DNA from: Acaryochloris thomasi RCC1774
Lineage (GTDB): Bacteria; Cyanobacteriota; Cyanobacteriia; Thermosynechococcales; Thermosynechococcaceae
Assembly (NCBI RefSeq): GCF_003231495.1
Contig: NZ_PQWO01000002.1
Coordinates: forward strand, 90,001 to 122,000
Reading direction: 5' to 3'
Length of the DNA stretch: 32,000 bases
Position 1 is the stretch's first letter; each line of letters begins with the position of its first letter. The notes beneath the pieces are model-generated. The model saw only the letters and a program-made list of their open reading frames with translations. It searched no databases and was not told the DNA's origin. Both the position numbers and the translations under genes were made by a program. Below are positions 4,779 to 24,799 of the stretch, in pieces.

Positions 4779-5873
4779 ATGGCAGGCATTGTTTTTGAGC
4801 AGGTCACCAAGCAGTATGAAAACGGGTTTGAAGCGGTCAAGAACTTCAACCTTGAAATTGGCGAGCAAGAATTTTTGGTCTTAGTCGGACCCTCTGGCTG
4901 CGGCAAAACCACATCACTCCGGATGCTGGCGGGGCTAGAGTCCATTAGCACGGGCAACATCTACATCAATGACAAGCGCGTTAATGATGTGGCCTCGAAA
5001 GATCGAGATATTGCGATGGTGTTTCAGTCCTACGCCCTGTATCCCCACATGACCGTATTTGAAAATATGGCCTTTAGCTTAGATCTGCAGGGCGTTTCTA
5101 AGGCTGAGCAGAAAGAACGGGTTCAGAAAACAGCCACACAGCTCGGGATCGAGGCCCTGCTGGACCGGAAACCCAAGCAGCTCTCGGGGGGACAGCGGCA
5201 GCGAGTAGCGGTGGGACGCGCCATTATCCGTGACCCTGCGGTATTCCTAATGGATGAACCGCTCTCTAACCTAGATGCCAAGCTCAGAGGACAGGCTCGG
5301 ACAGAGCTGAGCGACCTGCAAACAAAACTCGGCACCACCTTTGTCTACGTTACCCACGATCAGGTGGAGGCGATGACGATGGGCACCCGGATTGCCGTGA
5401 TGAATCAGGGCATTTTGCAGCAGGTTGATACGCCCCAAACGCTCTATGAGCGTCCCAATAATATGTTCGTGGCCGGATTTTTAGGCAGCCCGTCCATGAA
5501 CTTTCTCAAGGCAAAGCTTACGGCAGAGCAAGGGCAGCTTTGGGTCGTCAATCAAGCCGTCAAGCTACCGTTGCCGCCGCAATTACAGGCAAAATACCAG
5601 CAATATCAGGGCATGGAGGTTATCTTTGGCCTCCGCCCGGAGCATATTGCGCTGTCTGCCGCTGGCGATTCTGCCACAGATGTTGCGGCTCAGGTTTCTG
5701 CCCTAGAGATGATGGGGCATGAGGCTATGGTTTACTTCACGCTATCCGATGGTCAAAACTGCATTGCTCGCGTTCCTCCTCAACTGCAGCTTGTGCCGGG
5801 AGATAACTTCACAGCCTATTTCGACATGAATTACTGTCATTTATTCGATCTCGATTCGGAGCATGTCCTGTAG
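4779..5873 (+). CDS. ggtA: Sugar ABC transporter ATP-binding protein (MalK/UgpC-like), GgtA-like
   Basis: Walker A GPSGCGKTT, signature LSGGQRQR, Walker B FLMDEPLSNLD and H-loop YVTHDQ, plus a MalK-type C-terminal regulatory domain. I place the start at ATG 4779 (MAGIVFEQVTKQY), 17 nt after the ggtD stop. The track start at 4647 would overlap ggtD by 115 nt. Confidence 0.8.
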   Translation: MAGIVFEQVTKQYENGFEAVKNFNLEIGEQEFLVLVGPSGCGKTTSLRMLAGLESISTGNIYINDKRVNDVASKDRDIAMVFQSYALYPHMTVFENMAFSLDLQGVSKAEQKERVQKTATQLGIEALLDRKPKQLSGGQRQRVAVGRAIIRDPAVFLMDEPLSNLDAKLRGQARTELSDLQTKLGTTFVYVTHDQVEAMTMGTRIAVMNQGILQQVDTPQTLYERPNNMFVAGFLGSPSMNFLKAKLTAEQGQLWVVNQAVKLPLPPQLQAKYQQYQGMEVIFGLRPEHIALSAAGDSATDVAAQVSALEMMGHEAMVYFTLSDGQNCIARVPPQLQLVPGDNFTAYFDMNYCHLFDLDSEHVL

Positions 5874-5920
5874 CCCCTATTCTTTACCCATAACTCCTGC
5901 AATTCCTGTGAAGACCGGGG

Positions 5921-6055
5921 TCTAGCCCCCCTTTTTAAGAGGGTGGGTGGGCGAATCTCCCCTTAACTATCGCTATACAACTGACGATTTTGGAAAGCCC
6001 GTTGCATAGCGATGATCTAAATCCCCCCAGCCCCCCTTGCAAAAGGGGGGAGAAT
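5921..6055. repeat. Two C-tract/G-tract hairpin elements in the convergent intergenic region
   Basis: Positions 5926-5950 read CCCCCCTTTTTAAGAGGGTGGGTGG, an imperfect hairpin. Positions 6031-6050 read CCCCCCTT-GCAA-AAGGGGGG, a perfect 8-bp stem with a GNRA-type tetraloop. Neither element has a flanking U-tract. Confidence 0.4.
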
Positions 6056-6130
6056 ATAAGCTATAAGTAGACTTCAGGGCTTATGGGCGAATGCGAATGC
6101 AGCGCCAGCGGCGATTTGCTTAGCGCTATT

Positions 6131-6328
6131 TTAAGAGCGCTGGCCCCACTTTTTAAGCAGCTCAGCAGCAACCTCCACCATCCTGGGGTCAAAGGTTTCG
6201 ATATAGTCGATCATGGGTTGCGGAACAGATGAATCCTGGAGCTGTTCAAGGACTGTCTCCCCATCACTAGAAGTAAAAAGAGTTTCCAACAGATGGTCCT
6301 GAAAGGCTGCGAGTTCCCTTTCCTGCAT
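6131..6328 (-). CDS. 65-aa acidic helical protein translationally coupled to the MNIO enzyme; candidate minimal MNIO partner or peptide-recognition subunit
   Basis: ATG 6328..6326 lies 4 nt after the MNIO TAG (6335..6333), with GAAGGA 9-14 nt upstream. Sequence: MQERELAAFQDHLLETLFTSSDGETVLEQLQDSSVPQPMIDYIETFDPRMVEVAAELLKKWGQRS. The function is inferred only from position. MbnC, TglI and DUF2063 partners sit directly downstream of MNIO genes in the same way. Confidence 0.55.
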   Translation of the reverse strand: MQERELAAFQDHLLETLFTSSDGETVLEQLQDSSVPQPMIDYIETFDPRMVEVAAELLKKWGQRS

Positions 6329-6332
6329 TGTC

Positions 6333-7211
6333 CTATCCTTCTCTGTCGGCTTGCACAATAGCTTGAATCCGGGCAAAGTCTTGTCGAAATTGGCTTTGTT
6401 CAGAGGCGGGTCCCAGCGTATTGCCTAGACGCTCAAAAATCACGAACTGGACATTAAGGCACTGCTGCAAAGCCAAGGTCAGCAGCTCAAAGACCGCTTC
6501 TGGAACAGGTTGGTCATGGGTGTCGCGTCGAATTTGCCCCCCTGTCCCTTTGCTCCAAGAGCCACCAGAGATATGGATCTCTCGAACCCGATGGAGGGGG
6601 TAGAGTGCCAATAGTTCGGTGGCAGAGATCTGAAAGTTGCAGACTTGGCAGTACAAATTATGGACATCCAGCAGCAGAAAACCATCGACTGACTCTAGGA
6701 GCTTCTCTAGAAAGATACCCTGCTCTCGTACGTCCTGCTGGCTGAAGGCGAACGCTAAATTCTCCAGCCCCACCGGCACTTGTGCCACCTCAGCAAGTCG
6801 CTGTAATCGTTCACGCCCCAACTGTAGAGTCTCAGGGCATAACGGCATGGGTAAGGGGGCACTTTGACGAAAGGTCTCTGTTGCTAGCCAGCCAAAATGT
6901 TCTGAAATATGTTGATAGTGATACTGTCGACGCTCTGCTTCTAAACAGGCTAACCAGTGACTCCGATCGAGTTGGGCCGACAGTAGAGAGTAGCTAACGC
7001 CGTGCCCCAGCAAACGATCTTGCTGACTGAACTGATCTAGCAGAGGCGGCACCCACGTTGGCAGGCCAACCTTACCCCATCCCATATCAAAGCTCCATTC
7101 CAGGACTTCGACAGCACTAGATTCAAGTAGAGGTTGAGCCGTTTGCCAAAAATCGGCCTGAGGCATCAAAGACAGGCCTAGGCTGGGGCGAGTGGTTGTG
7201 GTTGTCGCCAC
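6333..7211 (-). CDS. DUF692 / MNIO (multinuclear non-heme iron oxidase, MbnB/TglH/BufB-like) enzyme
   Basis: TIM-barrel DUF692 signature blocks are seen in order: SLGLSL (beta-1), LGHGVSYS, ISEHFGW, GLENL, LLLDVHNLY, EIHISGG, RRDTHDQPV, VIFERL. The start is ambiguous. GTG 7211 lies 2 nt after the precursor A2 stop with GGGGG upstream. TTG 7238 is the track start and would overlap A2 by 25 nt. ATG 7166 would delete beta-1, so I reject it. Confidence 0.85.
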   Translation of the reverse strand: MATTTTTRPSLGLSLMPQADFWQTAQPLLESSAVEVLEWSFDMGWGKVGLPTWVPPLLDQFSQQDRLLGHGVSYSLLSAQLDRSHWLACLEAERRQYHYQHISEHFGWLATETFRQSAPLPMPLCPETLQLGRERLQRLAEVAQVPVGLENLAFAFSQQDVREQGIFLEKLLESVDGFLLLDVHNLYCQVCNFQISATELLALYPLHRVREIHISGGSWSKGTGGQIRRDTHDQPVPEAVFELLTLALQQCLNVQFVIFERLGNTLGPASEQSQFRQDFARIQAIVQADREG

Positions 7212-7213
7212 GA

Positions 7214-7504
7214 TTACCCCCGACCACAGGGTGGGCAATAGCCGGCCCGATAGCGAGGGTCTTTGGGATTGAGATGTGTTGGGAGGGTCTGAACAGGTGG
7301 CTCGTCCTTGGGCTTTACCTCAATGTTGTTCGACTCAGCTTTGGCCTGTGCTTCCAGGACCTGTGGCTGGGAATCAGATGGCTCAATTTCACCTGAGGGA
7401 ATTGCTTCGAGCGGTTTTTCGTGACGTTTTGGGCTAGCCCGTACGTTCTCTATACCGCTCAGAAGAAACAATAGGCCGAGCAGAAACGGAAGATAAAGCT
7501 TCAT
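7214..7504 (-). CDS. Secreted small protein, candidate MNIO precursor peptide A2 (96 aa) ending in YCPPCGRG
   Basis: From ATG 7504: MKLYLPFLLGLLFLLSGIENVRA|SPKRHE..., a Sec-type signal peptide. This is followed by a Pro/Glu/Gln-rich, Cys-free linker and the C-terminus KDPRYRAGYCPPCGRG*. It is a paralogue of A1 and lies immediately upstream of the MNIO gene. The track start at 7576 would add 24 aa in front of the signal peptide and overlap the A1 stop. Confidence 0.65.
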   Translation of the reverse strand: MKLYLPFLLGLLFLLSGIENVRASPKRHEKPLEAIPSGEIEPSDSQPQVLEAQAKAESNNIEVKPKDEPPVQTLPTHLNPKDPRYRAGYCPPCGRG

Positions 7505-7551
7505 AGAACATAGGGGAGTGAGTGAATGGAATGACTTCAGTCGCCTGACTG

Positions 7552-7872
7552 TTAACCCATGCCGCAGGCGGGACAATTACCGTCGAAGCTGTGGCGAGGA
7601 TCCTCTAGCTGATAGAGGGGAGTTGTCAGTGGGACTTTAGGCTGTTCTACTTGGGGCGTTGGCTGTTCGGCTCTCGTCGATTCGACCTTGGCTGTGATCG
7701 CCTCTATCTCTTCTGAGGTGATTGGCGCTTGCGAGTGGCGTTCGGTGACTTTAGCGGCAGGGGGCTGATGATTTTGAGGTGGCTCACTCAGTCGTGGCTT
7801 GGCCTGTGTGCTCCCGACAAAGCTCAATAGAGGCAACAGGCTTAGCAGGGCGGGCAAAGAAAGTGATTTCAT
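7552..7872 (-). CDS. Secreted small protein, candidate MNIO precursor peptide A1 (106 aa) ending in NCPACGMG
   Basis: MKSLSLPALLSLLPLLSFVGSTQA|KPRL..., a Sec-type signal peptide with an AxA-like site. A Cys-free Pro/Glu/Gln-rich linker follows, then the C-terminus EDPRHSFDGNCPACGMG*. It is the first gene of the minus-strand operon. Confidence 0.65.
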   Translation of the reverse strand: MKSLSLPALLSLLPLLSFVGSTQAKPRLSEPPQNHQPPAAKVTERHSQAPITSEEIEAITAKVESTRAEQPTPQVEQPKVPLTTPLYQLEDPRHSFDGNCPACGMG

Positions 7873-10205: not shown

Positions 10206-11378
10206 ATGATTCAACAAGCACCCACCCAGCAAGAGACCTTTGCCTTCGGTCCTCAAGAGCTTTCCCAAAAGCTCCTGCGGCTGCCCCATACTGAAACATC
10301 TGGCTATTGGAAAATTAGCTTTGACCGATTGGCCCATAAAAATCATCACTGGTATATTGGCCTATCTGCCAATCAAGAGGTCTGTTATACAGGGACACAG
10401 CCTTTCTCCTGTCAGACGCTGCTCAAGATAATCAAGCGCTATTTACCGCAGTCTCGTCGGGAGCCGACGCGGTCTTTTCTTGCGGGGCTGCACAAGACGA
10501 GCAAAGAACAATCATTATCGACTGTAGACACGATTGAAGAGCTGATTCAGATGAATATTCTGGATCTCAAGCAGCTAGCAGACATCCTGCGCTCGAAAAT
10601 TCTCGCTGATTTTGAGCTGTATCTCTCGATTGGGGCTGGAGGGGCTGTCTTTGTCCCTGACGAGTCTCTATCGACACAGATTCCCGTCCCTGGCTTGCCG
10701 ATAGAGACGCTTCTCAAACAGACTCAGCAGCGGCAGGTTCAGTGGCAGCGCGTCAAGCAGATTGTGCCGTCTATGAACGTGATTCCGATTTTAGATACAG
10801 AGCGCCTAGAGCAGTCTGAGCTACCTGAATCCCAGCGTCAGTGGCTAAAAGGCGTTGTTCGTTCGGGCAAAACCCTCAACGACATTAGCGTACTGGTTGC
10901 CAAAGATGTCTTAGAAATTGCCACCGCATTCGCAAAATTTATGCAGGCGGGCGTGATTCGACTGGACTCTGCAACGCAGTCTGAGCCTGGGACGGTGATG
11001 ATTATTGATGATTCACCGATGGTGCTCATGCAGTTTCAGCGCTTGGTTACGGCGTTGGGGCATCCTGTTGTTGTGAATCAAGAAGTTGAGAAATCAATTC
11101 CCATGATTTCTCAGGTTAAGCCTGCCATTATCTTCATCGATATCAATATGCCCGGCATTTCTGGTTTTGAGCTGGTCAAGCAAATTCGGCAGACCCCTGA
11201 GATTGCTTCGATTCCACTGGTTATTTTGACGGGCGAGCAAAAGCTGTCCAACAAGTGGCGTGCCCAGTGGAGTGGCTGTGACTTTCTAACGAAGCCACTG
11301 TCAATGAACGAAATCAATCAGTTTCAGGTTGCTCTACAGGAAAAACTTGAAACGGTGATGTCGACTGCGTCTGTTTAA
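10206..11378 (+). CDS. PatA-type response regulator (N-terminal PATAN-like domain plus C-terminal receiver), PilG/PixG/TaxP class
   Basis: 390 aa. C-terminal REC domain: VMIIDDSPMV...IIFIDINMPGISGFELVKQIR...LVILTGEQ...FLTKP. The roughly 260-aa N-terminal domain is typical of cyanobacterial PatA-like regulators. It is the first gene of the chemotaxis-like operon. Confidence 0.8.
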   Translation: MIQQAPTQQETFAFGPQELSQKLLRLPHTETSGYWKISFDRLAHKNHHWYIGLSANQEVCYTGTQPFSCQTLLKIIKRYLPQSRREPTRSFLAGLHKTSKEQSLSTVDTIEELIQMNILDLKQLADILRSKILADFELYLSIGAGGAVFVPDESLSTQIPVPGLPIETLLKQTQQRQVQWQRVKQIVPSMNVIPILDTERLEQSELPESQRQWLKGVVRSGKTLNDISVLVAKDVLEIATAFAKFMQAGVIRLDSATQSEPGTVMIIDDSPMVLMQFQRLVTALGHPVVVNQEVEKSIPMISQVKPAIIFIDINMPGISGFELVKQIRQTPEIASIPLVILTGEQKLSNKWRAQWSGCDFLTKPLSMNEINQFQVALQEKLETVMSTASV

Positions 11379-11417
11379 GTCTTCCTATCCCTCTACCCCC
11401 CTACCCTGGAGAATATT

Positions 11418-11780
11418 ATGCGATTTCTAATCATTGACGATAGCTCTGTTGATCGTCATTTCTTAGCCAAGCTGTTAGAAACAATTGGTCATGATGTTGA
11501 TCAATGTGATACCCCCAAAGAAGCATTGAGCTTAGTCGAATCGGGTGAGTATGACTTAGTCTTTTTAGACGTTGTGATGCCGGAGCAGGATGGCTACAAG
11601 TTTTTGCGAGAGCTTCGGATGAATCCGACAACGGCAAATCAGTATGTTGTCTTCTGCTCTAGCAAGAAAACGCCCCTAGAAATCAACTACGGTCTCAAGC
11701 GAGCCGGAGCCAATGACTACTTAACGAAGCCGGTCTCCCGCGAAACGGTTGAGCAGGTACTAGAGCGCGTTGCCGCTTAA
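11418..11780 (+). CDS. CheY-like single-domain response regulator (PilH/PixH class)
   Basis: 120 aa: MRFLIIDDSSVDR...LVFLDVVMPEQDGYKFLRELR...VVFCSSK...YLTKP. The acidic pocket, phospho-acceptor Asp and conserved Lys are all present. Confidence 0.9.
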   Translation: MRFLIIDDSSVDRHFLAKLLETIGHDVDQCDTPKEALSLVESGEYDLVFLDVVMPEQDGYKFLRELRMNPTTANQYVVFCSSKKTPLEINYGLKRAGANDYLTKPVSRETVEQVLERVAA

Positions 11781-11791
11781 AGGAGAATTCT

Positions 11792-12256
11792 ATGTCTGCC
11801 GTTGCAGAACGTCCTTCAACAGCGTTGGAACAGCGTTTGGTCTTAGCCCAAGTTGGAGCTTTTACCCTGGCAATTCCCGCATTATGGGTGTCTGAGATTG
11901 CTCGCTTTGAGCCATCTCAGATGCTGGAACTTCCCTTTTACCCGTCCCCGCTCATGGGCCTCATGCACCAAGGCGGACAAGTTGTACCTCTTGTGTCGGC
12001 GGCTCAACTGCTGCAGCAAGAGCGGCAAATGCGTCAAGAGCGACCCACCGTTATTTGCCTAGGAGAAGCGGCTGAGTCACTGAATCAAGTCGGAATTGTT
12101 GTGGATAAGATTCTGGGCAGTACAACCCACTCTGAAGTACCGGCGACGCTCTTCGAGCCGATTGATGTCTCAGCGTTGGGCTCTGAACAGATGGTTCTTC
12201 TGAGCCAGGAATGGTTCTCTTCAGATGTCTGGAAGCCCCAGCAGTGGGCGATTTAA
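11792..12256 (+). CDS. CheW-like coupling protein (PilI/PixI class)
   Basis: 154 aa, with single CheW-domain size and pattern (FTLAIPALWVSEIARF...GLMHQGGQVVPLVS...VGIVVDKILG). It sits between the CheY and MCP genes, 11 nt after the CheY stop. Confidence 0.8.
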   Translation: MSAVAERPSTALEQRLVLAQVGAFTLAIPALWVSEIARFEPSQMLELPFYPSPLMGLMHQGGQVVPLVSAAQLLQQERQMRQERPTVICLGEAAESLNQVGIVVDKILGSTTHSEVPATLFEPIDVSALGSEQMVLLSQEWFSSDVWKPQQWAI

Positions 12257-12364
12257 ATAACTGCAACTGTCCAAACCGTCATTCTAAAATCTTGCCTTTT
12301 TACCTACCTGATCGCTGATTCTGTGATCGGGAAACTCATCTAGCCGTTTTCCCTTTGTTTCGCC

Positions 12365-14278
12365 ATGAATACCCTAGAGTCTCAAGATAACCTCCAGCTT
12401 ACAACTGTTGAGCCGACCACGCCTGTGGGAAAGCTGCGGCAATATGTGCGCTCCCATCTGCTCGGAACGATGGGAGTCACTGTGGCCGGTAGTGTTGTCC
12501 TCACCTTTGTCTCCGTTGGGAATATGGTCCGCACCTATCAAGGATTCCAGTCGACGGTTAATAAGCAGTTTGAACTCCAGAAGCAAGCAGATAAAATCAC
12601 CTATGCTGACGAAGTTCTAACGATGTCGTCTCGGATGGCGGCCAGTACCGGCGATCTGAAGTGGGAAGAGCGCTATAACAATTTTGTGCCGCTGCTAGAT
12701 GATGCGATCGCAAACACCCTAGATAATGTCACCGACGAGATTCGGGCTGAGGCCAGCAAAACCGACGCTGCCAACCAAGCCCTGATTGAAATGGAAACTC
12801 AGGCCTTTGAACTCGTTCGGGCTGGTCGAGCATCTGAAGCTCTTCAGCTTTTGCTGGGACCGGAATACGGTGAGCAGAAAACAATCTATGCCGAAGGGAA
12901 TGCGCGTGTCCTAGCTGACGTAGAGGCTTTTATTGATGCACAGCTAGAGAGCTATCGCCAGGGCTTCCGGGCCTCCATCGGTTTTTCTGTCGGTACGCTG
13001 TCACTGTTAATGATTGCCTGGGTGCTGGTGTTATCTGCCGTTCGAGACTACATTCGAGATCGTATCAGAGCCCAGTCCGCGCTCAAGCAGTCACAGTCTG
13101 AACTCTCCGCCATTAACAACGAACTCCGTCAAGAAGCAGAGGCTCGCCGCCAGCAGGAAGAAAAAATCAGAGCTGAAAGTGAGCAACTGCAAGAGGATAT
13201 CGGTGAACTGCTAGATGTGGTGTGTGACATCGAAGAAGGCGATCTAACCGTTCAAGCCAAAGTGAACGACCGAGCCACCGGGTTGGTTAGCGACACGCTC
13301 AATCGTCTGGTTGAATCGCTAGGCAGTATTCTGCAGCAGGTAGATGCTAACACTCAAGAGGTCTCGCTCAGTGGTCAGCGCCATAAGCGGATTGCGGCAG
13401 TGGTTGCTGAAAGCACCGAGCAACAGACTCAGGCTGTTAATAAAGCCCTTGAACTGACCACGATCGTACAGAAAGCCGCTAACAGCGCTGCAGATCAGCT
13501 CGATACGACGAAGCAATCTCTATTGACGCTCCAGGGAACGGTCGTCAACGGCCAAGCCACAATGCAGCACTTGACCGCAGACATTGATGTTCTTCGGCAG
13601 GGAAGCGATCGCATCGTCCAGCAGATGAAGACTTTGGGTGAATTTGTCGGTCAAACCGATCAGTTTGTGCTTGACCAGAGTGAAATTGCCGCAGAAACGC
13701 AGGTTCTGGCCCTCAATGCTTCCTTGGTGGCGGCCCGAGCGGCTGAACAGCGTGATCCGCAGCAGTTTGCCCGCGTTGCCCGAGATTTTGAATTAATCGC
13801 CAACCAGGTCAGTCAGCTGGCCCAGCAGACGAACGACGGACTGAATACCCTAGAGCAGCGTAGCGCTCAAATTCACCAGGTGGTCTCTGACGTCGATGCC
13901 AACGTTCAAAGTCTAGGTGGGCTTGTGGAAGATTTCAATCGAGGCGTACAGCAAACCGACATTGTCTTCCAGGATGTTCAACAGGTTACTGGACAGGCTG
14001 TAGAAGCAGGTGATGTGGTAGCTCAGACGAGCCAAACAATTGTGGGATCCGCTGAAATTACGGCCCAAAGGATGCAGGCCATTGCCGATTTCTCGGCGCA
14101 AATCGCCCAGCAGTCCCAGCATGCTCGAGAGGTGTCAGACACTATGAACACCTTATCGACCGATCTTCTAGAAAAAGTCCAGGTCTTCAAGTTACCTGCC
14201 CAGGCCGAGACTCCAGCTTCTGAGACTCCAGCTTCTGAGGCTGCCGCAACTGAGCTGCCTATCGCTGTCGAAGTCTAA
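12365..14278 (+). CDS. Methyl-accepting chemotaxis-like protein 1: two TM segments, about 170-aa helical extracytoplasmic domain, HAMP-like region, MCP signalling domain
   Basis: 637 aa. TM1 GVTVAGSVVLTFVSVG. TM2 FSVGTLSLLMIAWVLVLSAV. HAMP-like EEGDLTVQAKVNDRATGLVSDTLNRLVESL. Long heptad-rich MCP domain including QVLALNASLVAARAAE. There is no GAF or PAS sensor domain. Confidence 0.85.
   Translation: MNTLESQDNLQLTTVEPTTPVGKLRQYVRSHLLGTMGVTVAGSVVLTFVSVGNMVRTYQGFQSTVNKQFELQKQADKITYADEVLTMSSRMAASTGDLKWEERYNNFVPLLDDAIANTLDNVTDEIRAEASKTDAANQALIEMETQAFELVRAGRASEALQLLLGPEYGEQKTIYAEGNARVLADVEAFIDAQLESYRQGFRASIGFSVGTLSLLMIAWVLVLSAVRDYIRDRIRAQSALKQSQSELSAINNELRQEAEARRQQEEKIRAESEQLQEDIGELLDVVCDIEEGDLTVQAKVNDRATGLVSDTLNRLVESLGSILQQVDANTQEVSLSGQRHKRIAAVVAESTEQQTQAVNKALELTTIVQKAANSAADQLDTTKQSLLTLQGTVVNGQATMQHLTADIDVLRQGSDRIVQQMKTLGEFVGQTDQFVLDQSEIAAETQVLALNASLVAARAAEQRDPQQFARVARDFELIANQVSQLAQQTNDGLNTLEQRSAQIHQVVSDVDANVQSLGGLVEDFNRGVQQTDIVFQDVQQVTGQAVEAGDVVAQTSQTIVGSAEITAQRMQAIADFSAQIAQQSQHAREVSDTMNTLSTDLLEKVQVFKLPAQAETPASETPASEAAATELPIAVEV
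14207..14236 (+). repeat. Perfect 15-bp tandem duplication (GAGACTCCAGCTTCT x2) inside the MCP-1 C-terminal tail
   Basis: Seen directly in the sequence. It encodes ETPAS-ETPAS. Confidence 0.9.
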
Positions 14279-14321
14279 CCACATCTAGTCCCCCACTCAT
14301 CCATTGTTGAAGGTAATAACC

Positions 14322-16256
14322 ATGACCGCTGAACAAATTGCTGTGACGCAAACATCAGGATCCAAAGCTTCGCTTCTCCGACGTCTACAGTCAGGGCTAC
14401 AGGCTCGCCTCGTCCCTACTATTACGGTCTCGGTACTGTTTAGCTTGGCGTTGACCGGCACCTCTGCCTGGAATATCTGGCGTATTTATCAGGGCCTACA
14501 GAGCACGATTACGAAGCAATTTAAACTGCAGGAGCGTAGTGGTCAAGTCATTCACCTTGATGAAGTGTTGACGATGTCCGCTCGGATGGCTGCTAGTACA
14601 GGTGATCTACAGTGGGAAGAGCGCTACAACATCAACGTCCCGCCCCTGGATGAAGCGATTGGTGCGGTCTTAAGTGAACTGCCTGAGGCTGAGCAAACGA
14701 ATCCGGCTAAGACTAATGCTGCCAACCAGCGTCTGATCGAAATGGAAACGCAGGCCTTTGAACTCGTGCGGCAAGGACAGTCTGAGACTGCCCTAGATTT
14801 ACTGCTCAGCCGTAAGTATAGGATGCAGAAGTTTATCTATAGCCAAGGTATCAATGGCACCCTGCAGACGGTACAGCAAAAGGTTGCAAATCAGCTAGGA
14901 GCCTACCAGCAACGTCTTGCTTGGTCTGTAACCTATGCGGTTTCGAGTTTGTTGCTGTTGGCTTTGACTTGGTACATCGTGCTGATGGCAGTACGCGGCT
15001 ATATTCAAGAACGACGCCAGTCCCAAATTGATCTGGAAGCATCGCAGACGAACCTGCTGTCTCTCAACAGCACTCTAGAGGGTGAGGTTAAGCAGCGAGC
15101 CGCGCAAGAGCAAGCGATTCGAGAAGAAAGTGAGCTGTTGCAGATGGATGTGGGGCACATCTTAGACGTGGTATCTGCCCTAGAAGATGGCGATTTGACC
15201 GTCGAAGCAGAAGTGAATGAGCGCGCCACAGGTCTTGTGTCTGATACGCTCAACCGACTGATTGAATCTCTGAGTCGAGTGGTTTCTTCGGTTGTTACAA
15301 CCGCAGAGCAGGTGACAGAGAGCGCCGAACAGCTTGAGGGTATTGCTGTTGAGACCGCAGAGCAGGCTCAGTTCCAGACCGCCTCGGTCCAGGACGTACA
15401 GTTGCTGATGGAAGCGGTGAACACACTGACCTCTGACTCGCTGGAGCAGGCGCTCGCAACCGGGCAAGCCGTGGAGAAAGCTAAGACTGCGGTGTTCACC
15501 GGTCAGCAGGGGATGGACGCTATGGTCGGTGGCATTGAAACCCTACAGGTCGGAACTGAGCAAATTGTGAAACGAACGCAGCTCTTGGGTGAGTTTGTGG
15601 ATTTGGCAACTCAGTTCTCTAAAGACCAAAAGCGAGTGGCTTCGCTCACGCGAGTTCTCTCTCTGAACGCTTCTACCGTAGCGTCTCGTGCCCTTAAAGA
15701 AGAGGATCCAGAACAGTTTGCCAGCCTTGCCAATGAGTTTGACGTGATTGCTCGCCAAGTTAATGATTTGGCAACTGAAACCAATAATGGTTTGGTCCTT
15801 CTGCAGCAGCGCACCAATCAAATCCAGACGGTGTCTTCGGGCCTCAATTACGATGTTTCTGAGATTAGCGAACTGGTGCAGGCCTTTACGCAAGAGGTGG
15901 GCCAGGCCCGTCAAGCCTTTAGCAACATTCAGCAGGTGACCGATCAAGTAGAGCAGGTGGGTCAGCAGGTCAGTTTATCTAGTCAAGGCATGGTGAAGGT
16001 GACCCAGAATACTCTGGCTGCTACCCAAAAGATCGCAGAGATTGCCCAAGAAACGGATGCTAAAGCAGCCATCACTCGTGTGCAGGTCGAAGCTATGGGT
16101 AACGTGGCCCGCACATTGCTAGAGGTTGTGTCATTCTTCCAGGTTCAGGCAGAGGAATCGCCAGAGTCGGTTGCGGTGGCTTCCTCAGAAGAATCTGCTG
16201 CAGCTCCCATGACGGAAGAGCCAATTTCTGAATCACAGCAGCTTGTCTCCGCTTAG
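14322..16256 (+). CDS. Methyl-accepting chemotaxis-like protein 2, a tandem paralogue of MCP-1
   Basis: Start placed at ATG 14322 (MTAEQIAV); the track start at 14304 is a TTG. It has the same architecture as MCP-1, with colinear blocks: DEVLTMSARMAASTGDLQWEERYN, RLIEMETQAFELVR, ERATGLVSDTLNRLIESL, RVLSLNASTVASRA. Confidence 0.85.
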   Translation: MTAEQIAVTQTSGSKASLLRRLQSGLQARLVPTITVSVLFSLALTGTSAWNIWRIYQGLQSTITKQFKLQERSGQVIHLDEVLTMSARMAASTGDLQWEERYNINVPPLDEAIGAVLSELPEAEQTNPAKTNAANQRLIEMETQAFELVRQGQSETALDLLLSRKYRMQKFIYSQGINGTLQTVQQKVANQLGAYQQRLAWSVTYAVSSLLLLALTWYIVLMAVRGYIQERRQSQIDLEASQTNLLSLNSTLEGEVKQRAAQEQAIREESELLQMDVGHILDVVSALEDGDLTVEAEVNERATGLVSDTLNRLIESLSRVVSSVVTTAEQVTESAEQLEGIAVETAEQAQFQTASVQDVQLLMEAVNTLTSDSLEQALATGQAVEKAKTAVFTGQQGMDAMVGGIETLQVGTEQIVKRTQLLGEFVDLATQFSKDQKRVASLTRVLSLNASTVASRALKEEDPEQFASLANEFDVIARQVNDLATETNNGLVLLQQRTNQIQTVSSGLNYDVSEISELVQAFTQEVGQARQAFSNIQQVTDQVEQVGQQVSLSSQGMVKVTQNTLAATQKIAEIAQETDAKAAITRVQVEAMGNVARTLLEVVSFFQVQAEESPESVAVASSEESAAAPMTEEPISESQQLVSA

Positions 16257-16315
16257 CGGCCTACCGTAGTTTCTTTCTCCCCTTCAATTGTCTTGTATTG
16301 AGTCACAGTGGCACC

Positions 16316-19300
16316 ATGACACTCGAACCTTCATCTTTTCCTTCTCAGACTTCTGTTGATGCAGCGGAAGCACAGCTACAGCAAGAATTGTGTGCCATGT
16401 TTGAACTGGACACACAGCAGCACTTTCAGGCTTATGTTGAGGTGGTTCAGCGCCTCGATGCTCAGTCTTGGACTGCCGATATTCAGCACATTTATCGCGC
16501 CGTCCATACTGTTAAGGGCGGGGCCGTAACGGTGGAAGCTGAGGCGGTTCTCAGAGCTGCTACTGTCCTTGAGGATTTACTCTCTGACCTTCGCTATCTG
16601 GATCAAGCGCCGCCCCTAGAGGACGGACAGCTTGTGCGGATGCTGCAGGAAGCTGGGGAATTACTCAGCAGTACGCTGGAGGTAAAGGGAACTGGGGAAG
16701 ATGCGATCGCATCTATTCAGCCCACCCTTGATCGCATCCAGGCGCTGCATGCTCAGATCAAGCAGCGCTATATCCCAGACTGGAACGAACTGACCCAGGT
16801 CCACCAAGAATTCGCAGAACAGGGCTTTGACCTCGTAATCCTAGATCTTGAGATGGCGGTCAATCAGCTCCCGGTTCAGGGACAGATCTCAGATGCAGCC
16901 CTACAGATAGCTCAGCAGACCCTAGCGCAGCTCACCCAAATCGGGGATGACCTCCAGTTGGCTGAAGACTGGACTGCCCTCGTTAACCGGAGCCACGAAC
17001 TGGCCCAGCACCCCGACAGTGCCGTCTGGAAATATGTCTGGCCGCTTTATTTCGCCGCCCTAAAAGACTGTGCCAAGCACAGTGGTCACTATGCGCTTGA
17101 ACAGCTAGCCGATCTTAGCGTAATGGCTGCGAATCTCCCTGCGGTTGCGAGTCTAGAAACGCCAGCTGCTTCAGAGGCAGAAATAGAGTTGGTCTCTAGT
17201 GATGTGGATCTCATTGCCGACTTCCCTGACGACCTAACTGATATAGATTTGCCGGATCTAGAGCTGTCTAGCCTAGATGAAACTTTGTTCGCAGAGAGCG
17301 ATGCTGGACTCGGTGGTACCCTCAGTGATGATGTGTTCTCCACAGCGTTCACCGACGACCTTGGGGCCGAAGATCTAGACCTTGCTGCTCTCGAAGAGGA
17401 TGAGGCCGCTATTCATCAACTCGTCGATGCAGATCCTGAAGATCCAGAGCTAACCTTCGACTCAGGTGACGTTCAGGGACTCTTTCCTACACCCGTTGCT
17501 GAGGCTGGCCTCTTCCCCACGACCCTGGCACCCGCAAATGTGCCCGCAAAGGCTGATGCTCCTGAGTCCAGTGTCACCGCCGAGGGTGCCGACGCTGAAC
17601 TTAGGCGTCGGATTAAAATTCCAGTGCCGCTAGAGCGACTAGATCAATCTGCCCAGCAGGTTGTTGAGACGCTCCTGACCACTCGGTCCACGCTCACCGT
17701 CTCCCAATCGCTAGAATTCCAAGTCTCGCAGCTGGCGGCATTGACTCAAGAAAGCTCGCAATATATTACCCGCCTCCGTCAGCTCCAAGATGACTACGCG
17801 TTGCTGCGGAGCCTAAGCCATGAACAAGACCCCACTAACGGTACCTCTGTTGAGCAATATCGTCAGGGGTATACAACGATCAATCGCCTGCTGGAAAACA
17901 TTCTGCGGATGTCGGAGCTGAGCAGAGAAATTGAAGGCATGTCACACCAAGCGGTGGCGGGCATGGGACAGCTCGACCGGGACATGCTGTGCCTCAAGGA
18001 TGAGATTGAATCTAGCCGTCTAGTCCCGTTCAAAAATCTGACGCTGCGGGCTAAAGCCATTGTGCGAGATCTCAGCAATCGCTACGATAAACCGGCTCAA
18101 CTGGTGATTCATGGTGAACAGCTAGAGCTGGATGCCGGTGTGATTCAGCAGATCGAGCCAGCCCTACTGCACCTGTTGCGCAATGCCTACGACCATGGTC
18201 TCGAATCTGTAGAAGAACGAATGGGCAAGGGTAAGCCTGTGGAGGGCGTGATCCAGCTTGTGCTGCAGCGCCGAGGTAATCTTTATCGTCTGACAATTCA
18301 AGATGATGGCCGAGGGATTGATGCTGCTGCCATTCACCAGAAAGCGCAAGAGAAAGGCTTCCCGCTCACCGAGACTCAAACCTCTGCTGATTTGTTGGCC
18401 GTGCTCTGTCAGCCGGGCTTCAGCTCTCGCAACGTTGCCGATGATGTCTCCGGTCGGGGCGTGGGTATGGATGTGGTGGCTGGACAAATCGCCAATATGG
18501 GCGGACGACTGAGCCTCAATTCACGCCCAGGTGAGGGATCAACGTTTACGATTGAAGTACCTGCGCCCCAGCTATTGGTGCCCTGTGTGCTGCTCCAGGT
18601 GGGTAAGCGAACCGTCGCAATTCCCACGGAAGAAATTCGTGAAACAGTCTTGGCTAGCTCGATTCAGGTGCGTGCCAATGCAGAACCTGATGCTCTCTGT
18701 CCTTGGACGGTGGAAACGGCTCGGGGAGAAGCCCCCGGCTTTGGTTTAGCCGCCTATTGGCAGCAGTCTCAGACAGAGCTATCTGAAACCGCAGTGTGTT
18801 TACGGATTCGCCAGAATTTCGATCGCCTATCTGATGGTTCAGAAATGTGGTTGATTGCCGATGAACTGCTGGGGCAAGAAGCCCTGCTTATTAACCCGAT
18901 TCCGAGTCCACTAGTGGTACCGGCTGGTTTGTTAGGGGTGAGCCTACGCTCTGATGGCAGGCTGATTTCGGTGATTGACCCCATCGCGCTGATAGAAGCG
19001 ATTGAGACAGAGACACAGACTCAGCCAAAGATTCAGCCTCAGCAGCCTATAGTTCCTGCCGCTCAACCAGAAGATTCAACGGCTCCTACCCTCCTGATTG
19101 TGGATGATGCAGCTTTAATGCGTCGTCGTCTTGAGGGAAGTTTGCGTACCTATGGATTCGTCATACAGGCCTGCGTTGATGGTCTAGAGGCGCTCCAGTG
19201 GCTCCAGTCTCATCCGGCTCCAGCTCTGCTGATTACAGATATCGAAATGCCTAACATGGACGGGTTTACGCTTGTAGATCGCTGTCGGGCGCAGGGCTTG

Positions 19301-19465
19301 GAAATGCCAATCCTGGTGATTTCTTCTCGGATCTCAGAGGAATGGGGGCGAGAGGCCCAGCGATTAGGAGCCAACGCCTATCTCAATAAAGGGTTTGCCA
19401 CCCCAGAGCTGCTTCAGCAGGTGAACCAACTCTTAGAGGCAAAGCAACCGCAGGCGATCTCCTGA
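16316..19465 (+). CDS. Hybrid CheA-type histidine kinase with C-terminal receiver (Hpt, acidic linker, dimerisation, HATPase, CheW-like, REC); PilL/PixL/TaxAY class
   Basis: Start placed at ATG 16316; the track start at 16298 is a TTG. Hpt motif AVHTVKGGA. N-box LLHLLRNAYDHGLE. G-boxes DDGRGID and GRGVGMDVV. A CheW-like segment follows (CVLLQVGKRTVAIPTEEI...). The C-terminal REC domain reads LLIVDDAALMRRRL...LLITDIEMPNMDGFTL...LVISSR...YLNKG. Confidence 0.9.
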   Translation: MTLEPSSFPSQTSVDAAEAQLQQELCAMFELDTQQHFQAYVEVVQRLDAQSWTADIQHIYRAVHTVKGGAVTVEAEAVLRAATVLEDLLSDLRYLDQAPPLEDGQLVRMLQEAGELLSSTLEVKGTGEDAIASIQPTLDRIQALHAQIKQRYIPDWNELTQVHQEFAEQGFDLVILDLEMAVNQLPVQGQISDAALQIAQQTLAQLTQIGDDLQLAEDWTALVNRSHELAQHPDSAVWKYVWPLYFAALKDCAKHSGHYALEQLADLSVMAANLPAVASLETPAASEAEIELVSSDVDLIADFPDDLTDIDLPDLELSSLDETLFAESDAGLGGTLSDDVFSTAFTDDLGAEDLDLAALEEDEAAIHQLVDADPEDPELTFDSGDVQGLFPTPVAEAGLFPTTLAPANVPAKADAPESSVTAEGADAELRRRIKIPVPLERLDQSAQQVVETLLTTRSTLTVSQSLEFQVSQLAALTQESSQYITRLRQLQDDYALLRSLSHEQDPTNGTSVEQYRQGYTTINRLLENILRMSELSREIEGMSHQAVAGMGQLDRDMLCLKDEIESSRLVPFKNLTLRAKAIVRDLSNRYDKPAQLVIHGEQLELDAGVIQQIEPALLHLLRNAYDHGLESVEERMGKGKPVEGVIQLVLQRRGNLYRLTIQDDGRGIDAAAIHQKAQEKGFPLTETQTSADLLAVLCQPGFSSRNVADDVSGRGVGMDVVAGQIANMGGRLSLNSRPGEGSTFTIEVPAPQLLVPCVLLQVGKRTVAIPTEEIRETVLASSIQVRANAEPDALCPWTVETARGEAPGFGLAAYWQQSQTELSETAVCLRIRQNFDRLSDGSEMWLIADELLGQEALLINPIPSPLVVPAGLLGVSLRSDGRLISVIDPIALIEAIETETQTQPKIQPQQPIVPAAQPEDSTAPTLLIVDDAALMRRRLEGSLRTYGFVIQACVDGLEALQWLQSHPAPALLITDIEMPNMDGFTLVDRCRAQGLEMPILVISSRISEEWGREAQRLGANAYLNKGFATPELLQQVNQLLEAKQPQAIS

Positions 19466-23308: not shown

Positions 23309-24799
23309 ATGTCCTCGGATCAACGCTATCAAAGTCAGATTTTTAACGTTATTTTGCGTCAGTCACGGGAGCTGACGGATCAATGGCAGCGCAATGTGCG
23401 ACAGGCGAAGGTGGCGTCGTTCTGGGGGATGCAAATGGCTGTCTACCCGGTTTATTTGCTCTTCCAGGTGACCCGATTGAGTGAACAGGTTCTGCGGCAG
23501 GCCGATACCCAAGGGCAGCGATTGCTGAAGGCGGCTCTTGATCCCGATCAGTCGCCGCTGCAAGGCGCTCAGTCTGATCTGCCGATTCGTCGGGTGCTGG
23601 AGGCGATTCAGATTGTGACCGCGTCTGTTGAGGCAGAAGACGCTCAGTTTGTCGTTGAAATTACCGCTCCGTCTGCTCAGCGCTCTAGCCTCTTGCAGCG
23701 ATACCGGCGTTGGTTTAGGCGTCTCAGTCAGCGCCGTTCCCTACACCCTAAGAATCATGATGGCTCAATGCTGCGGGGGCTGGCGACGAATATTGAGAGT
23801 CGTCATTTAATTTTGGTGACGCCCGCGAATGAACCGCTAGATGTCTTGACGCCAGCACAGCAGAAAACGCTGCTGCAGCTGATGACCTGGGAGGTGGCGC
23901 ACTACCAGCGTCAGCAACGGCTCAATCAGCAGCTTTGGAGTGTCACAAAGCTCAAGCAAAAACCGCTCAAGCAGCCGGTGATGCGATCGCAAATGCTGCC
24001 CCCTGTCCGTGGCTTCCGTAAAGTGATGGGCTGGTTTCAAACGAGCCCAATGGCGACCACCACCAACTTATTCCAAGAAGCGAAGGCGGCTGATCCCCTG
24101 CTCGTGCTGATGGGCGGTCACGAGCATATCCCGCTGCCGGATGATTTAGGTGCTGCTTTGAAACGTTTGTCCCCTCAGGTTACCCCTGAAGCATGGGAGA
24201 TGATGGATGTTGCGATCGCATCTCTAGAAGCTAAATCACAGCAGCTCATGGGACCGACCACAGAGCGACTTGCCCAGCAAATAACCCAGCAGCTCCGAAA
24301 CCACAGCCCTCACGTGCGGTCTAGTCCCGATCTCAACCCACCGACCCCTGCTGTGCAGGCAACAGGCTGGCTTCAATCTGCCTTTGCGACTCTCTTCGGC
24401 AGCGGTCCCGTGTCGCCGCGTTCATCTGCGACCGTTGCCCCAACCGTATCTGAACCTTCCGTCTTCGAGGCTGGACTGTCATGGAATGAACTCTATGGCG
24501 CTAAAGTTCTGCAGACGTCACCGCCTAGCGCTACCAAAGATGCGTCACCAGTTTCGCTTGAGTCATCAGCCGGAGACGTTCTTGTTGCGTCTGACCTAGC
24601 CGGACGCGTCACGATAGATGAGCAGGGCATTGAAATTGAAGTAGATGCCGTTTTTGTTGAGTACGAGCAGCATTCCTTAGAGCGAATTTTGAACACTCTA
24701 GACCGCGTTGTCTCTTGGCTCGAAAAGCGTCTGATTCCTTGGTTTGAGCAGAGCTGGTCCGTCGTCAAAGTTTACTTTCAAAAGCTTGGACAGCCATAA
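23309..24799 (+). CDS. Hypothetical protein (496 aa), Gln/Arg-rich, no family recognised
   Basis: A long ORF with coding-like composition, divergent from the yjbQ-like gene. It has one hydrophobic stretch near the N-terminus (VASFWGMQMAVYPVYLLFQV). Confidence 0.55.
   Translation: MSSDQRYQSQIFNVILRQSRELTDQWQRNVRQAKVASFWGMQMAVYPVYLLFQVTRLSEQVLRQADTQGQRLLKAALDPDQSPLQGAQSDLPIRRVLEAIQIVTASVEAEDAQFVVEITAPSAQRSSLLQRYRRWFRRLSQRRSLHPKNHDGSMLRGLATNIESRHLILVTPANEPLDVLTPAQQKTLLQLMTWEVAHYQRQQRLNQQLWSVTKLKQKPLKQPVMRSQMLPPVRGFRKVMGWFQTSPMATTTNLFQEAKAADPLLVLMGGHEHIPLPDDLGAALKRLSPQVTPEAWEMMDVAIASLEAKSQQLMGPTTERLAQQITQQLRNHSPHVRSSPDLNPPTPAVQATGWLQSAFATLFGSGPVSPRSSATVAPTVSEPSVFEAGLSWNELYGAKVLQTSPPSATKDASPVSLESSAGDVLVASDLAGRVTIDEQGIEIEVDAVFVEYEQHSLERILNTLDRVVSWLEKRLIPWFEQSWSVVKVYFQKLGQP

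Follow-up and report, generated by a model that had tools for sequence, protein, structure and literature searches.

A split ChrH-type oxidase and two candidate secreted peptide substrates in the cyanobacterium Acaryochloris thomasi RCC1774

A 32,000-nt stretch of DNA from Acaryochloris thomasi RCC1774 (hereafter the window; all coordinates are window positions) contains two small paralogous genes, A1 and A2, located immediately upstream of the genes coding for a ChrH-like multinuclear non-heme iron oxidase (MNIO; DUF692) and for a short helical protein named Hc. By analogy with characterized homologues, A1 and A2 very probably code for paralogous substrates of a split ChrH-type enzyme (MNIO plus Hc), which would modify their C-terminal CPxCGxG tails. 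This assignment is based on the linkage of open reading frames (ORFs) ending in CxxCGxG to homologous enzymes, on the conservation of Hc, and on the recurrence of the order A1, A2, MNIO, Hc in two related loci, L084 and L083. An initial annotation of this DNA had proposed that the two genes code for precursors of RiPPs (peptides synthesized on the ribosome and modified after translation), the conserved C-terminal CPxCGxG being the modified core. That proposal is essentially correct, given that ChrH, DybH and MelH/MelHc modify the same motif (PMC10214503, PMC13056109), and the unmodified metal knuckle it had offered as an alternative is unlikely.

The two precursor genes and their products

A1, A2, MNIO and Hc lie on the minus strand in this order, separated by gaps of 47, 2 and 4 nt, respectively, and form one tightly packed four-gene operon. 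A1 (7552..7872), taken from the ORF list, codes for 106 aa plus a stop, and its product is 100% identical to the NCBI hypothetical protein C1752_00661 of A. thomasi RCC1774. A2 (7214..7504) codes for 96 aa plus a stop when read from the ATG at 7504; the mechanically defined ORF extends to a TTG at 7576 and overlaps A1. A protein identical to that of A2 is entry P0130 of the representative library. Both genes were present at the minus-strand positions where two paralogues had been annotated, and a BLASTP comparison aligned their products end to end with 36% identity over 95 residues (E = 0.007, single comparison). The sequence blocks previously listed as shared fared unevenly in this alignment: AKVES was paired with AKAES, and QPKVP fell roughly opposite the DEPPV stretch, but EEIEAI and GEIEPS were unpaired, and the similarity of this last block is only loose.

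Up to the stop codon, the C-terminal stretch of A1 reads YQLEDPRHSFDGNCPACGMG (also written EDPRHSFDGNCPACGMG), and that of A2 reads HLNPKDPRYRAGYCPPCGRG (also written KDPRYRAGYCPPCGRG). As the initial annotation had stated, each peptide has two cysteines and no more, and these fall among its last seven residues (C100 and C103 in A1, C90 and C93 in A2). These cysteines belong to the cores CPACGMG (A1 residues 100–106; 7555..7575, minus strand) and CPPCGRG (A2 residues 90–96; 7217..7237, minus strand), each directly followed by the stop codon. A six-frame translation of the window contained CxxCGxG followed by a stop at two sites only, those of A1 and A2. A DPR motif precedes each core, at residues 91–93 of A1 (7594..7602, minus strand) and 82–84 of A2 (7253..7261, minus strand). 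When A1 and A2 were compared with Pfam and NCBIfam, no family was matched at threshold; the sub-threshold ChrA-related matches were confined to the last 18–39 residues of A1.

Both products begin with a predicted Sec signal peptide of the signal peptidase I (SPI) type. In A1 it comprises the first 24 residues (MKSLSLPALLSLLPLLSFVGSTQA; 7801..7872, minus strand), with predicted cleavage after TQA, as judged from hydrophobicity and the −3/−1 rule; in A2, the same kind of heuristic delimits the first 23 residues (MKLYLPFLLGLLFLLSGIENVRA; 7436..7504, minus strand), with predicted cleavage after VRA. A Lys occupies position 2 in both, the Kyte-Doolittle 10-residue maximum of the hydrophobic core is 2.28 for A1 and 2.72 for A2, and the candidate cleavage sites T-Q-A and V-R-A fit the −3/−1 rule. 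No Cys lies near either signal peptide, hence neither has a lipobox. The signal peptide region is the best conserved part of A1 besides the C-terminus. The earlier remark that signal peptides are unusual on RiPP precursors needs to be qualified, since MNIO-class precursors that bear them have been described, namely bufferins, oxazolins and chryseobasins (PMC12452194, PMC13056109); SignalP assigned SPI signal peptides to both ChrA and MelA1 (PMC13056109).

The predicted mature peptides would be 82 aa (A1) and 73 aa (A2) long and acidic to neutral, with a Pro content of 16–18% and about 11% Glu. Their middles are free of Cys and, in agreement with the initial annotation, probably disordered: about 77–78% of the residues are disorder-promoting, the grand average of hydropathy is −0.95 and −1.18, and the AlphaFold2 model of A1, built from a nine-sequence alignment, showed no confident fold (predicted local distance difference test, 56.6; predicted template modelling score, 0.17). 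The N-terminal part of A1 and A2 is a predicted Sec signal peptide followed by a drifting spacer, not a classical recognition leader.

The enzyme and its separate helical domain

The gene directly downstream of A2 codes for a ChrH-like MNIO, confirming the DUF692 link made by the initial annotation. The protein consists of the catalytic TIM-barrel part only (292 aa; 6333..7211, minus strand). Its likely start codon is the GTG at 7211, 2 nt past the A2 stop. The mechanically defined ORF begins with a TTG (7238), and the NCBI annotation (C1752_00659, 277 aa) places the start at an internal ATG (region 7166–7238). The ChrH model and the orthologues reach upstream of the annotated start, and in the L084 orthologue the MNIO gene starts with an ATG located 2 nt past the stop of its A2 gene, a geometry that matches that of GTG 7211.

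The enzyme matched PF05114 (MbnB_TglH_ChrH) with an E-value of 3.2e-35 and NF050165 (MNIO_ChrH) with 352.8 bits (2e-105) over model positions 1–284 of 363. It showed 50% identity to MelH and 81% to the core of a fused 368-aa enzyme encoded by a syntenic relative, L001. Nine candidate metal-site residues (H70, H105, E150, D182, N185, H213, D230, H232 and E260) were invariant in 17 homologues, and most of them align with TglH or with 3BWW. By analogy with the MbnB and TglH structures, these nine residues are putative Fe ligands. The order of the metal site in MbnB and TglH (His/His/Glu/Asp/Asn/His/Asp/His/Glu) is retained in the window MNIO.

Hc (C1752_00658; 65 aa; 6131..6328, minus strand) is a separately encoded C-terminal helical-bundle domain of the ChrH type. 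Its ATG (6328) lies 4 nt past the MNIO stop and is preceded by AAGGA. The protein is 69% identical to residues 303–367 of the fused L001 MNIO and 42% identical to MelHc. The AlphaFold2 model of the L001 enzyme consists of a TIM barrel (residues 1–295), a low-confidence linker (296–304) and a four-helix bundle (305–363); the top Foldseek matches of the barrel were TglH, MbnB and the DUF692 structure 3BWW. The break between MNIO and Hc in the window sits in the region that matches the L001 linker. An extra C-terminal helical bundle is found in all ChrH-subfamily enzymes and is a separate polypeptide in Cyanobacteriota (PMC13056109).

Two other interpretations of the 65-aa ORF were tried and rejected. 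It is not a DUF2063 partner or one of the RiPP recognition element type, as it had no Pfam match and aligned with the C-terminal domain of fused ChrH-like enzymes. Nor is the split between MNIO and Hc a frameshift artefact: a separate Hc is the majority arrangement (65 of the 74 loci in which Hc follows the enzyme, see below), stand-alone Hc homologues of 65–68 aa occur in independent assemblies, and the Hc start has its AAGGA.

The enzymes of L001 (6512–7618) and the window (6131–7211) are 81% identical, but the former is fused (368 aa) and the latter split (292 + 65 aa). In addition, L001 contains a single precursor, of the A1 type, and no A2. Because enzymes this similar are fused in one locus and split in the other, and because L001 has only one precursor, both the fission or fusion of the enzyme and the gain or loss of a precursor are recent events.

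Related loci and selection on the precursors

An enzyme profile search of species-representative genomes identified 80 loci which, together with L001 and the window, made up 82 sources; the survey of ORFs ending in CxxCGxG followed by a stop spanned 692 kb of these related loci. It detected 74 such ORFs, against 0.15 expected in shuffled sequences, an enrichment of about 500-fold. At least one was present in 62 of the 82 sources, directly upstream of the homologous enzyme, and several loci had two; the initial annotation had suggested looking for small ORFs beside DUF692 genes elsewhere. Nearly all of them lay on the same strand as the enzyme and ended at most a few dozen bases from its start. 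No CxxCGxG-ending ORF was found in the fetched flanks of the remaining 20 sources (for example L024, L031–L033, L039, L040, L043 and L045), whose precursors may have variant motifs, be located further off, or be cut by contig ends. A hidden Markov model (HMM) of the Hc domain located Hc directly after the enzyme in 74 of the 82 sources (65 times as an ORF of its own, nine times fused).

The gene order of the window is also found elsewhere. A1-type and A2-type genes, an MNIO gene (293 aa) and an Hc gene (65 aa) occur again beside the same phosphoglucomutase gene in L084/L083, which derive from an independent metagenome assembly. A contig from a metagenome-assembled genome (L082) contains an A2-type gene, MNIO and Hc, followed by the same ABC transporter. 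More widely, the module formed by precursor(s), MNIO and Hc is kept across Cyanobacteriota, Melainabacteria, Planctomycetota, Verrucomicrobiota, Bacteroidota and others.

Precursor lengths in the related loci ranged from 54 to 328 aa. Of the 72 precursors no shorter than 45 aa, a hydrophobic N-terminus was seen in 54, and 14 of these also had a lipobox-like Cys; a Cys of this kind after the hydrophobic stretch was frequent in the precursors of Planctomycetes and Bacteroidota. The commonest core was CPACGMG (19 of 72), which is likewise the most frequent one in the ChrA family (PMC10214503, PMC13056109). The A2 core, CPPCGRG, was found five times, for instance in L002 and L020. Two precursors with unlike cores were present in many loci (L014, L019, L021, L025, L030, L034, L035, L059, L060 and L063), with pairs such as CPFCGRG and CPGCGMG, or CAGCGLG and CPPCGRG, in one locus.

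Outside this genomic context, the precursors were difficult to trace. A word-indexed protein search with A1 returned only three non-self homologues, A1 orthologues being 52–59% identical; in a MAFFT alignment, P0003 and P0004 were 61% and 60% identical to A1. A profile HMM built from five precursor sequences found only six clusters among 1.84 billion representatives, all from the same cyanobacterial clade. Since merely seven residues are common to these peptides and ChrA, a search with precursor sequences cannot bridge the two, and the link to the ChrA family was therefore made through the enzyme and the genome context.

Across orthologues, the conserved tail is DPR-x(5,6)-[N/Y]-CPxCGxG. The motif originally annotated, DPR[HY]-x(2,3)-G-x-CPxCGxG, fits A1 and A2 themselves, but its [HY] and G positions vary in the orthologues (DPRHSINDNC, DPRYGIHDNC, DPRDWAEYC, DPRTWHSGYC). 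The DPR triplet is invariant in the nine aligned A1-type and A2-type sequences (9/9). Among the 74 precursors of the survey it was found in nine, all cyanobacterial and all associated with enzymes at least about 64% identical to the window MNIO; it is thus a clade-specific motif of a cyanobacterial subclade. Located 6–7 residues ahead of the first Cys, it is probably an extra contact for the enzyme of this clade, or a later cleavage site, and it offers a handle for probing recognition or processing. In the published view, recognition rests on a minimal C-terminal motif, leaving the rest of the precursor free to vary (PMC13056109).

One locus departs from the Sec-type arrangement. In L003 (metagenome-assembled genome Acaryochloris sp. 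IP29b_bin.148), two small ORFs with double-glycine-type leaders in place of signal peptides (1308–2005) sit upstream of a Sec-type precursor, MNIO and Hc. The first reads MSELFTELSDQQQELVAGG followed by AITT... and has no Cys core. The second reads MTMSQLFSDVSEQQQEKLSGG followed by CMFCGSDGS...GSDPRHTGGGCPACGMG; a tail of the form DPR..CPACGMG is therefore also found behind another type of export leader.

Selection on the precursors was estimated from the ratio of non-synonymous to synonymous substitution rates (dN/dS; Nei-Gojobori method, three orthologue pairs per gene). Overall values were about 0.25–0.35 for A1 and about 0.3–0.4 for A2; for the last 20 residues of A2 the ratio was about 0.1–0.25. 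Values were higher in the middle of the precursors than at the two ends, the signal peptide and the last 20 residues. All insertions and deletions among precursor orthologues involved whole codons, and the reading frames were kept. Purifying selection acts on the precursors, and most strongly on these two ends; A1 and A2 are coding genes whose head and tail are constrained and whose spacer drifts.

Proposed maturation, alternatives and neighbouring genes

ChrH requires both Cys residues of CPACGMG and modifies them (PMC10214503). MelHc co-purifies with MelH, and the two proteins turn the C-terminal CPACGMG into a macrocycle plus a hydantoin, with a mass change of −4 Da; conversion of MelA1 to the unmethylated −4 Da product required MelH and MelHc together (PMC13056109). 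If the window enzyme behaves like ChrH, DybH and MelH/MelHc, an MNIO-Hc heterodimer would bind the free C-terminal CPxCGxG of A1 and A2 in the cytoplasm. It would then use O2 in a four-electron oxidation joining the sulfur of the first Cys to the β-carbon of the second, which would generate the macrocycle. A backbone rearrangement would yield the imidazolidinedione (hydantoin), and the second sulfur would end as a thiohemiaminal. The net change would be −4 Da, and S-methylation is most likely absent, as it is with MelH/Hc and DybH. Modification should precede export, because the enzymes have no secretion signal (PMC13056109). Sec export and removal of the signal peptide by SPI would follow, and the expected outcome is a pair of disordered peptides of about 9 kDa (A1) and 8 kDa (A2), with a modified C-terminal cap, in the periplasm or the medium.

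The mel cluster of Melainabacteria bacterium SJ512 (PMC13056109, PNAS 2026), which corresponds to L029 in the survey, resembles the window locus in several respects. It is a minimal biosynthetic gene cluster (BGC), its enzyme is split into an MNIO of ~293 aa and a helical protein of ~65–68 aa encoded directly downstream, and MelA1 carries an SPI signal peptide and ends in CPACGMG; the enzyme components show the identities given above (50% for MNIO, 42% for Hc). However, MelA1 (34 kDa) is folded and dimeric and lacks DPR, whereas A1 and A2 are peptides of ~100 aa, disordered by prediction, with DPR and two divergent cores. Downstream of MelHc, L029 contains a gene (5093–6079) for a second large secreted protein, ending in ...PPYVACGMG; with a single Cys in its terminal motif, this protein cannot form a two-Cys macrocycle.

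The chryseobasin system of Chryseobacterium (ChrA/ChrH/ChrI; PMC10214503) likewise has a small SPI-secreted peptide that ends in CPACGMG. Of the MNIO models, that of ChrH gives the window enzyme its highest score, and the helical C-terminal domain is present in both. Unlike the split enzyme of the window, ChrH is a single polypeptide of the 363-aa class. The chr BGC also includes ChrI (DUF1772), the ChrE epimerase and the ChrP M42 peptidase, none of which was detected among the scanned window ORFs (those of at least 110 aa), and ChrH yields an S-methylated product (+10 Da), a modification not anticipated for the window. The DybA/DybH RiPP-lipoproteins of Bacteroidota (PMC13056109) share with the locus the CPxCGxG core, the enzyme subfamily, a minimal BGC of precursor plus MNIO, and an unmethylated −4 Da product, the last expected for A1 and A2. 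In contrast, DybA has a lipobox and a signal peptide of the signal peptidase II type, and becomes a lipoprotein, whereas A1 and A2 have no lipobox; DybH, moreover, is a fused enzyme.

Several observations weigh against A1 and A2 being substrates of a ChrH-type enzyme. The MNIO scored below the NCBIfam ChrH equivalog cut-off (352.8 versus 600 bits, NF050165). A1 reached 13.8 bits with the ChrA model (cut-off 50) and 15.7 bits with ChrA_rel (cut-off 40; NF050124/NF050125), and A2 matched neither of these two models, even at E = 1. A Pfam scan of the window ORFs of at least 110 aa did not find ChrI (DUF1772), methyltransferase or protease genes, and the literature contained no published test of the CPPCGRG core that we could find. 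The signal peptides of A1 and A2 are predictions from a heuristic check of n-h-c organization and the −3/−1 rule. As the cut-offs were missed and ChrI, ChrE and ChrP were not found, the locus and the Chryseobacterium chr system are not equivalogs. It shows every computable defining feature of the ChrH-like subfamily (PMC13056109), the signal peptides as heuristic predictions.

A further maturation step in the Acaryochloris/Thermosynechococcaceae clade is conceivable, if rather doubtful, in which a periplasmic or extracellular protease would act at DPR and free macrocyclic hydantoin peptides of 12–13 residues. The products would be HSFDGN-CPACGMG and YRAGY-CPPCGRG, each with its core modified, and the disordered spacer of ~60 residues would be a disposable carrier. 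Were this the case, one operon would give rise to two different small diffusible molecules, and the tail found behind a double-glycine leader in L003 would be a core module moved between two export routes.

It is improbable that only A1, with its CPACGMG core, is a true substrate, and that A2 is a duplicate undergoing decay, or has some role other than that of a substrate. Such an explanation would agree with the absence of A2 from the close relative L001, with the failure of A2 to match NCBIfam at E = 1, and with the want of a published CPPCGRG test. Against it, A2-type peptides (DPRxW..YCPPCGRG) are kept in no fewer than five further cyanobacterial sources; orthologues are present in L082, L084, L002 and L020, and in L002 and L020 the A2-type peptide is the sole precursor adjoining the enzyme. 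In addition, 12 CPPCG[MRQ]G cores adjoin MNIOs in the survey, the last 20 residues of A2 show the low dN/dS ratio noted above, and the 2-nt gap couples A2 translationally to the MNIO gene.

A quite different chemistry, the installation by the MNIO of a 5-thiooxazole or an oxazolone-thioamide to give a copper-chelating peptide, as in bufferins, methanobactins or oxazolins, is very improbable. The bufferin and oxazolin systems (BufABC, HvfABC; PMC11626156, PMC12452194) belong to the same enzyme superfamily and also have Sec-exported RiPP precursors, in which an MNIO modifies Cys residues in the cytoplasm before export. The window MNIO gave secondary matches to the BufB (108.9 bits, 2.5e-31) and HvfB (87.8 bits, 8.8e-25) models; the ChrH score, however, was three times that of BufB. 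These systems represent another MNIO clade and require a DUF2063 partner (BufC/HvfC), which is absent from the window locus, where the ChrH-specific helical domain is found in its place. Their precursors show DUF2282, Buf_6/12Cys or EGKCG repeats, features not present in A1 and A2; neither these two nor the 65-aa ORF had a Pfam match. Their products carry a thiooxazole or an oxazolone-thioamide, with a demonstrated role in copper stress, but MelH/Hc, a homologue of the cyanobacterial type, yields the chryseobasin-type −4 Da product, and the DybH product lacks an aromatic UV-vis feature (PMC13056109). Methanobactin loci comprise MbnB, MbnC and a short MbnA; the window MNIO scored 12.1 bits with the MbnB model (cut-off 325), and the locus has no MbnC.

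CPxCG is a common metal-knuckle motif, and A1 and A2 might be exported unmodified, their dithiol serving as a periplasmic metal-binding (knuckle) or redox site while the MNIO acts elsewhere. A role in metal binding is conceivable insofar as other MNIO products, namely methanobactins, bufferins and oxazolins, bind copper (PMC11626156, PMC12452194), but this explanation is scarcely credible for A1 and A2. A zinc ribbon or metal knuckle would have two CxxC, or CxxC plus CxxH, and hence four ligands, or would match a family model; A1 and A2 have a single CxxC, which provides two ligands only, and matched no metal-binding family of Pfam or NCBIfam. Further, the motif is always located at the extreme C-terminus, beside a ChrH-like MNIO and Hc, and the conservation of this three-gene module argues against an unmodified knuckle. 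In three homologous systems both Cys residues are consumed by the enzyme (PMC10214503, PMC13056109). Finally, the idea that both ORFs are chance reading frames, prompted by their low-complexity sequence and want of a Pfam match, has a negligible probability in view of the kept frames, whole-codon indels and dN/dS below 1, the abundance of the terminal motif (about 500-fold over shuffles) and the conserved synteny.

The peptide family to which A1 and A2 are assigned has been known since 2023, and its cyanobacterial form with a split enzyme and SPI-secreted precursors was described in 2026; the locus is a new example. Among the papers searched, none deals with Acaryochloris together with MNIO, and the words "Acaryochloris" and "thomasi" are absent from the searched supplements of the MNIO landscape survey (PMC12452194) and of the 2023 ChrH paper (PMC10214503). 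The locus opens no new category and is unlikely to surprise a specialist. It does provide a compact, genetically defined cyanobacterial example, from a cultured strain, of a family with remarkable chemistry. It also contains several natural experiments: two cores presented to one enzyme in one operon, an enzyme that is either split or fused among close relatives at 81% identity, and the clade-specific DPR motif.

The Pfam scan of the window ORFs identified genes for a sugar ABC transporter and a phosphoglucomutase flanking the RiPP locus. A scan for promoters and terminators between positions 5800 and 8100 gave counts no higher than expected from shuffled sequences and was uninformative, and an Rfam scan of the whole window gave zero matches. 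Two large ORFs had no Pfam match at E ≤ 1e-5, one of 650 aa (14304–16256) and one of 496 aa (23309–24799). A chemotaxis-like operon is located on the plus strand (10206–19465). It codes for two response regulators (one of 390 aa, whose N-terminus is extended by a long stretch, and one of 120 aa), a CheW-like protein (154 aa), a methyl-accepting chemotaxis protein, a 650-aa protein without a Pfam match, and a 1055-aa hybrid kinase with Hpt, HATPase and receiver domains. In L001 and L083, synteny with the RiPP locus extends to the first genes of this operon and to the phosphoglucomutase gene.

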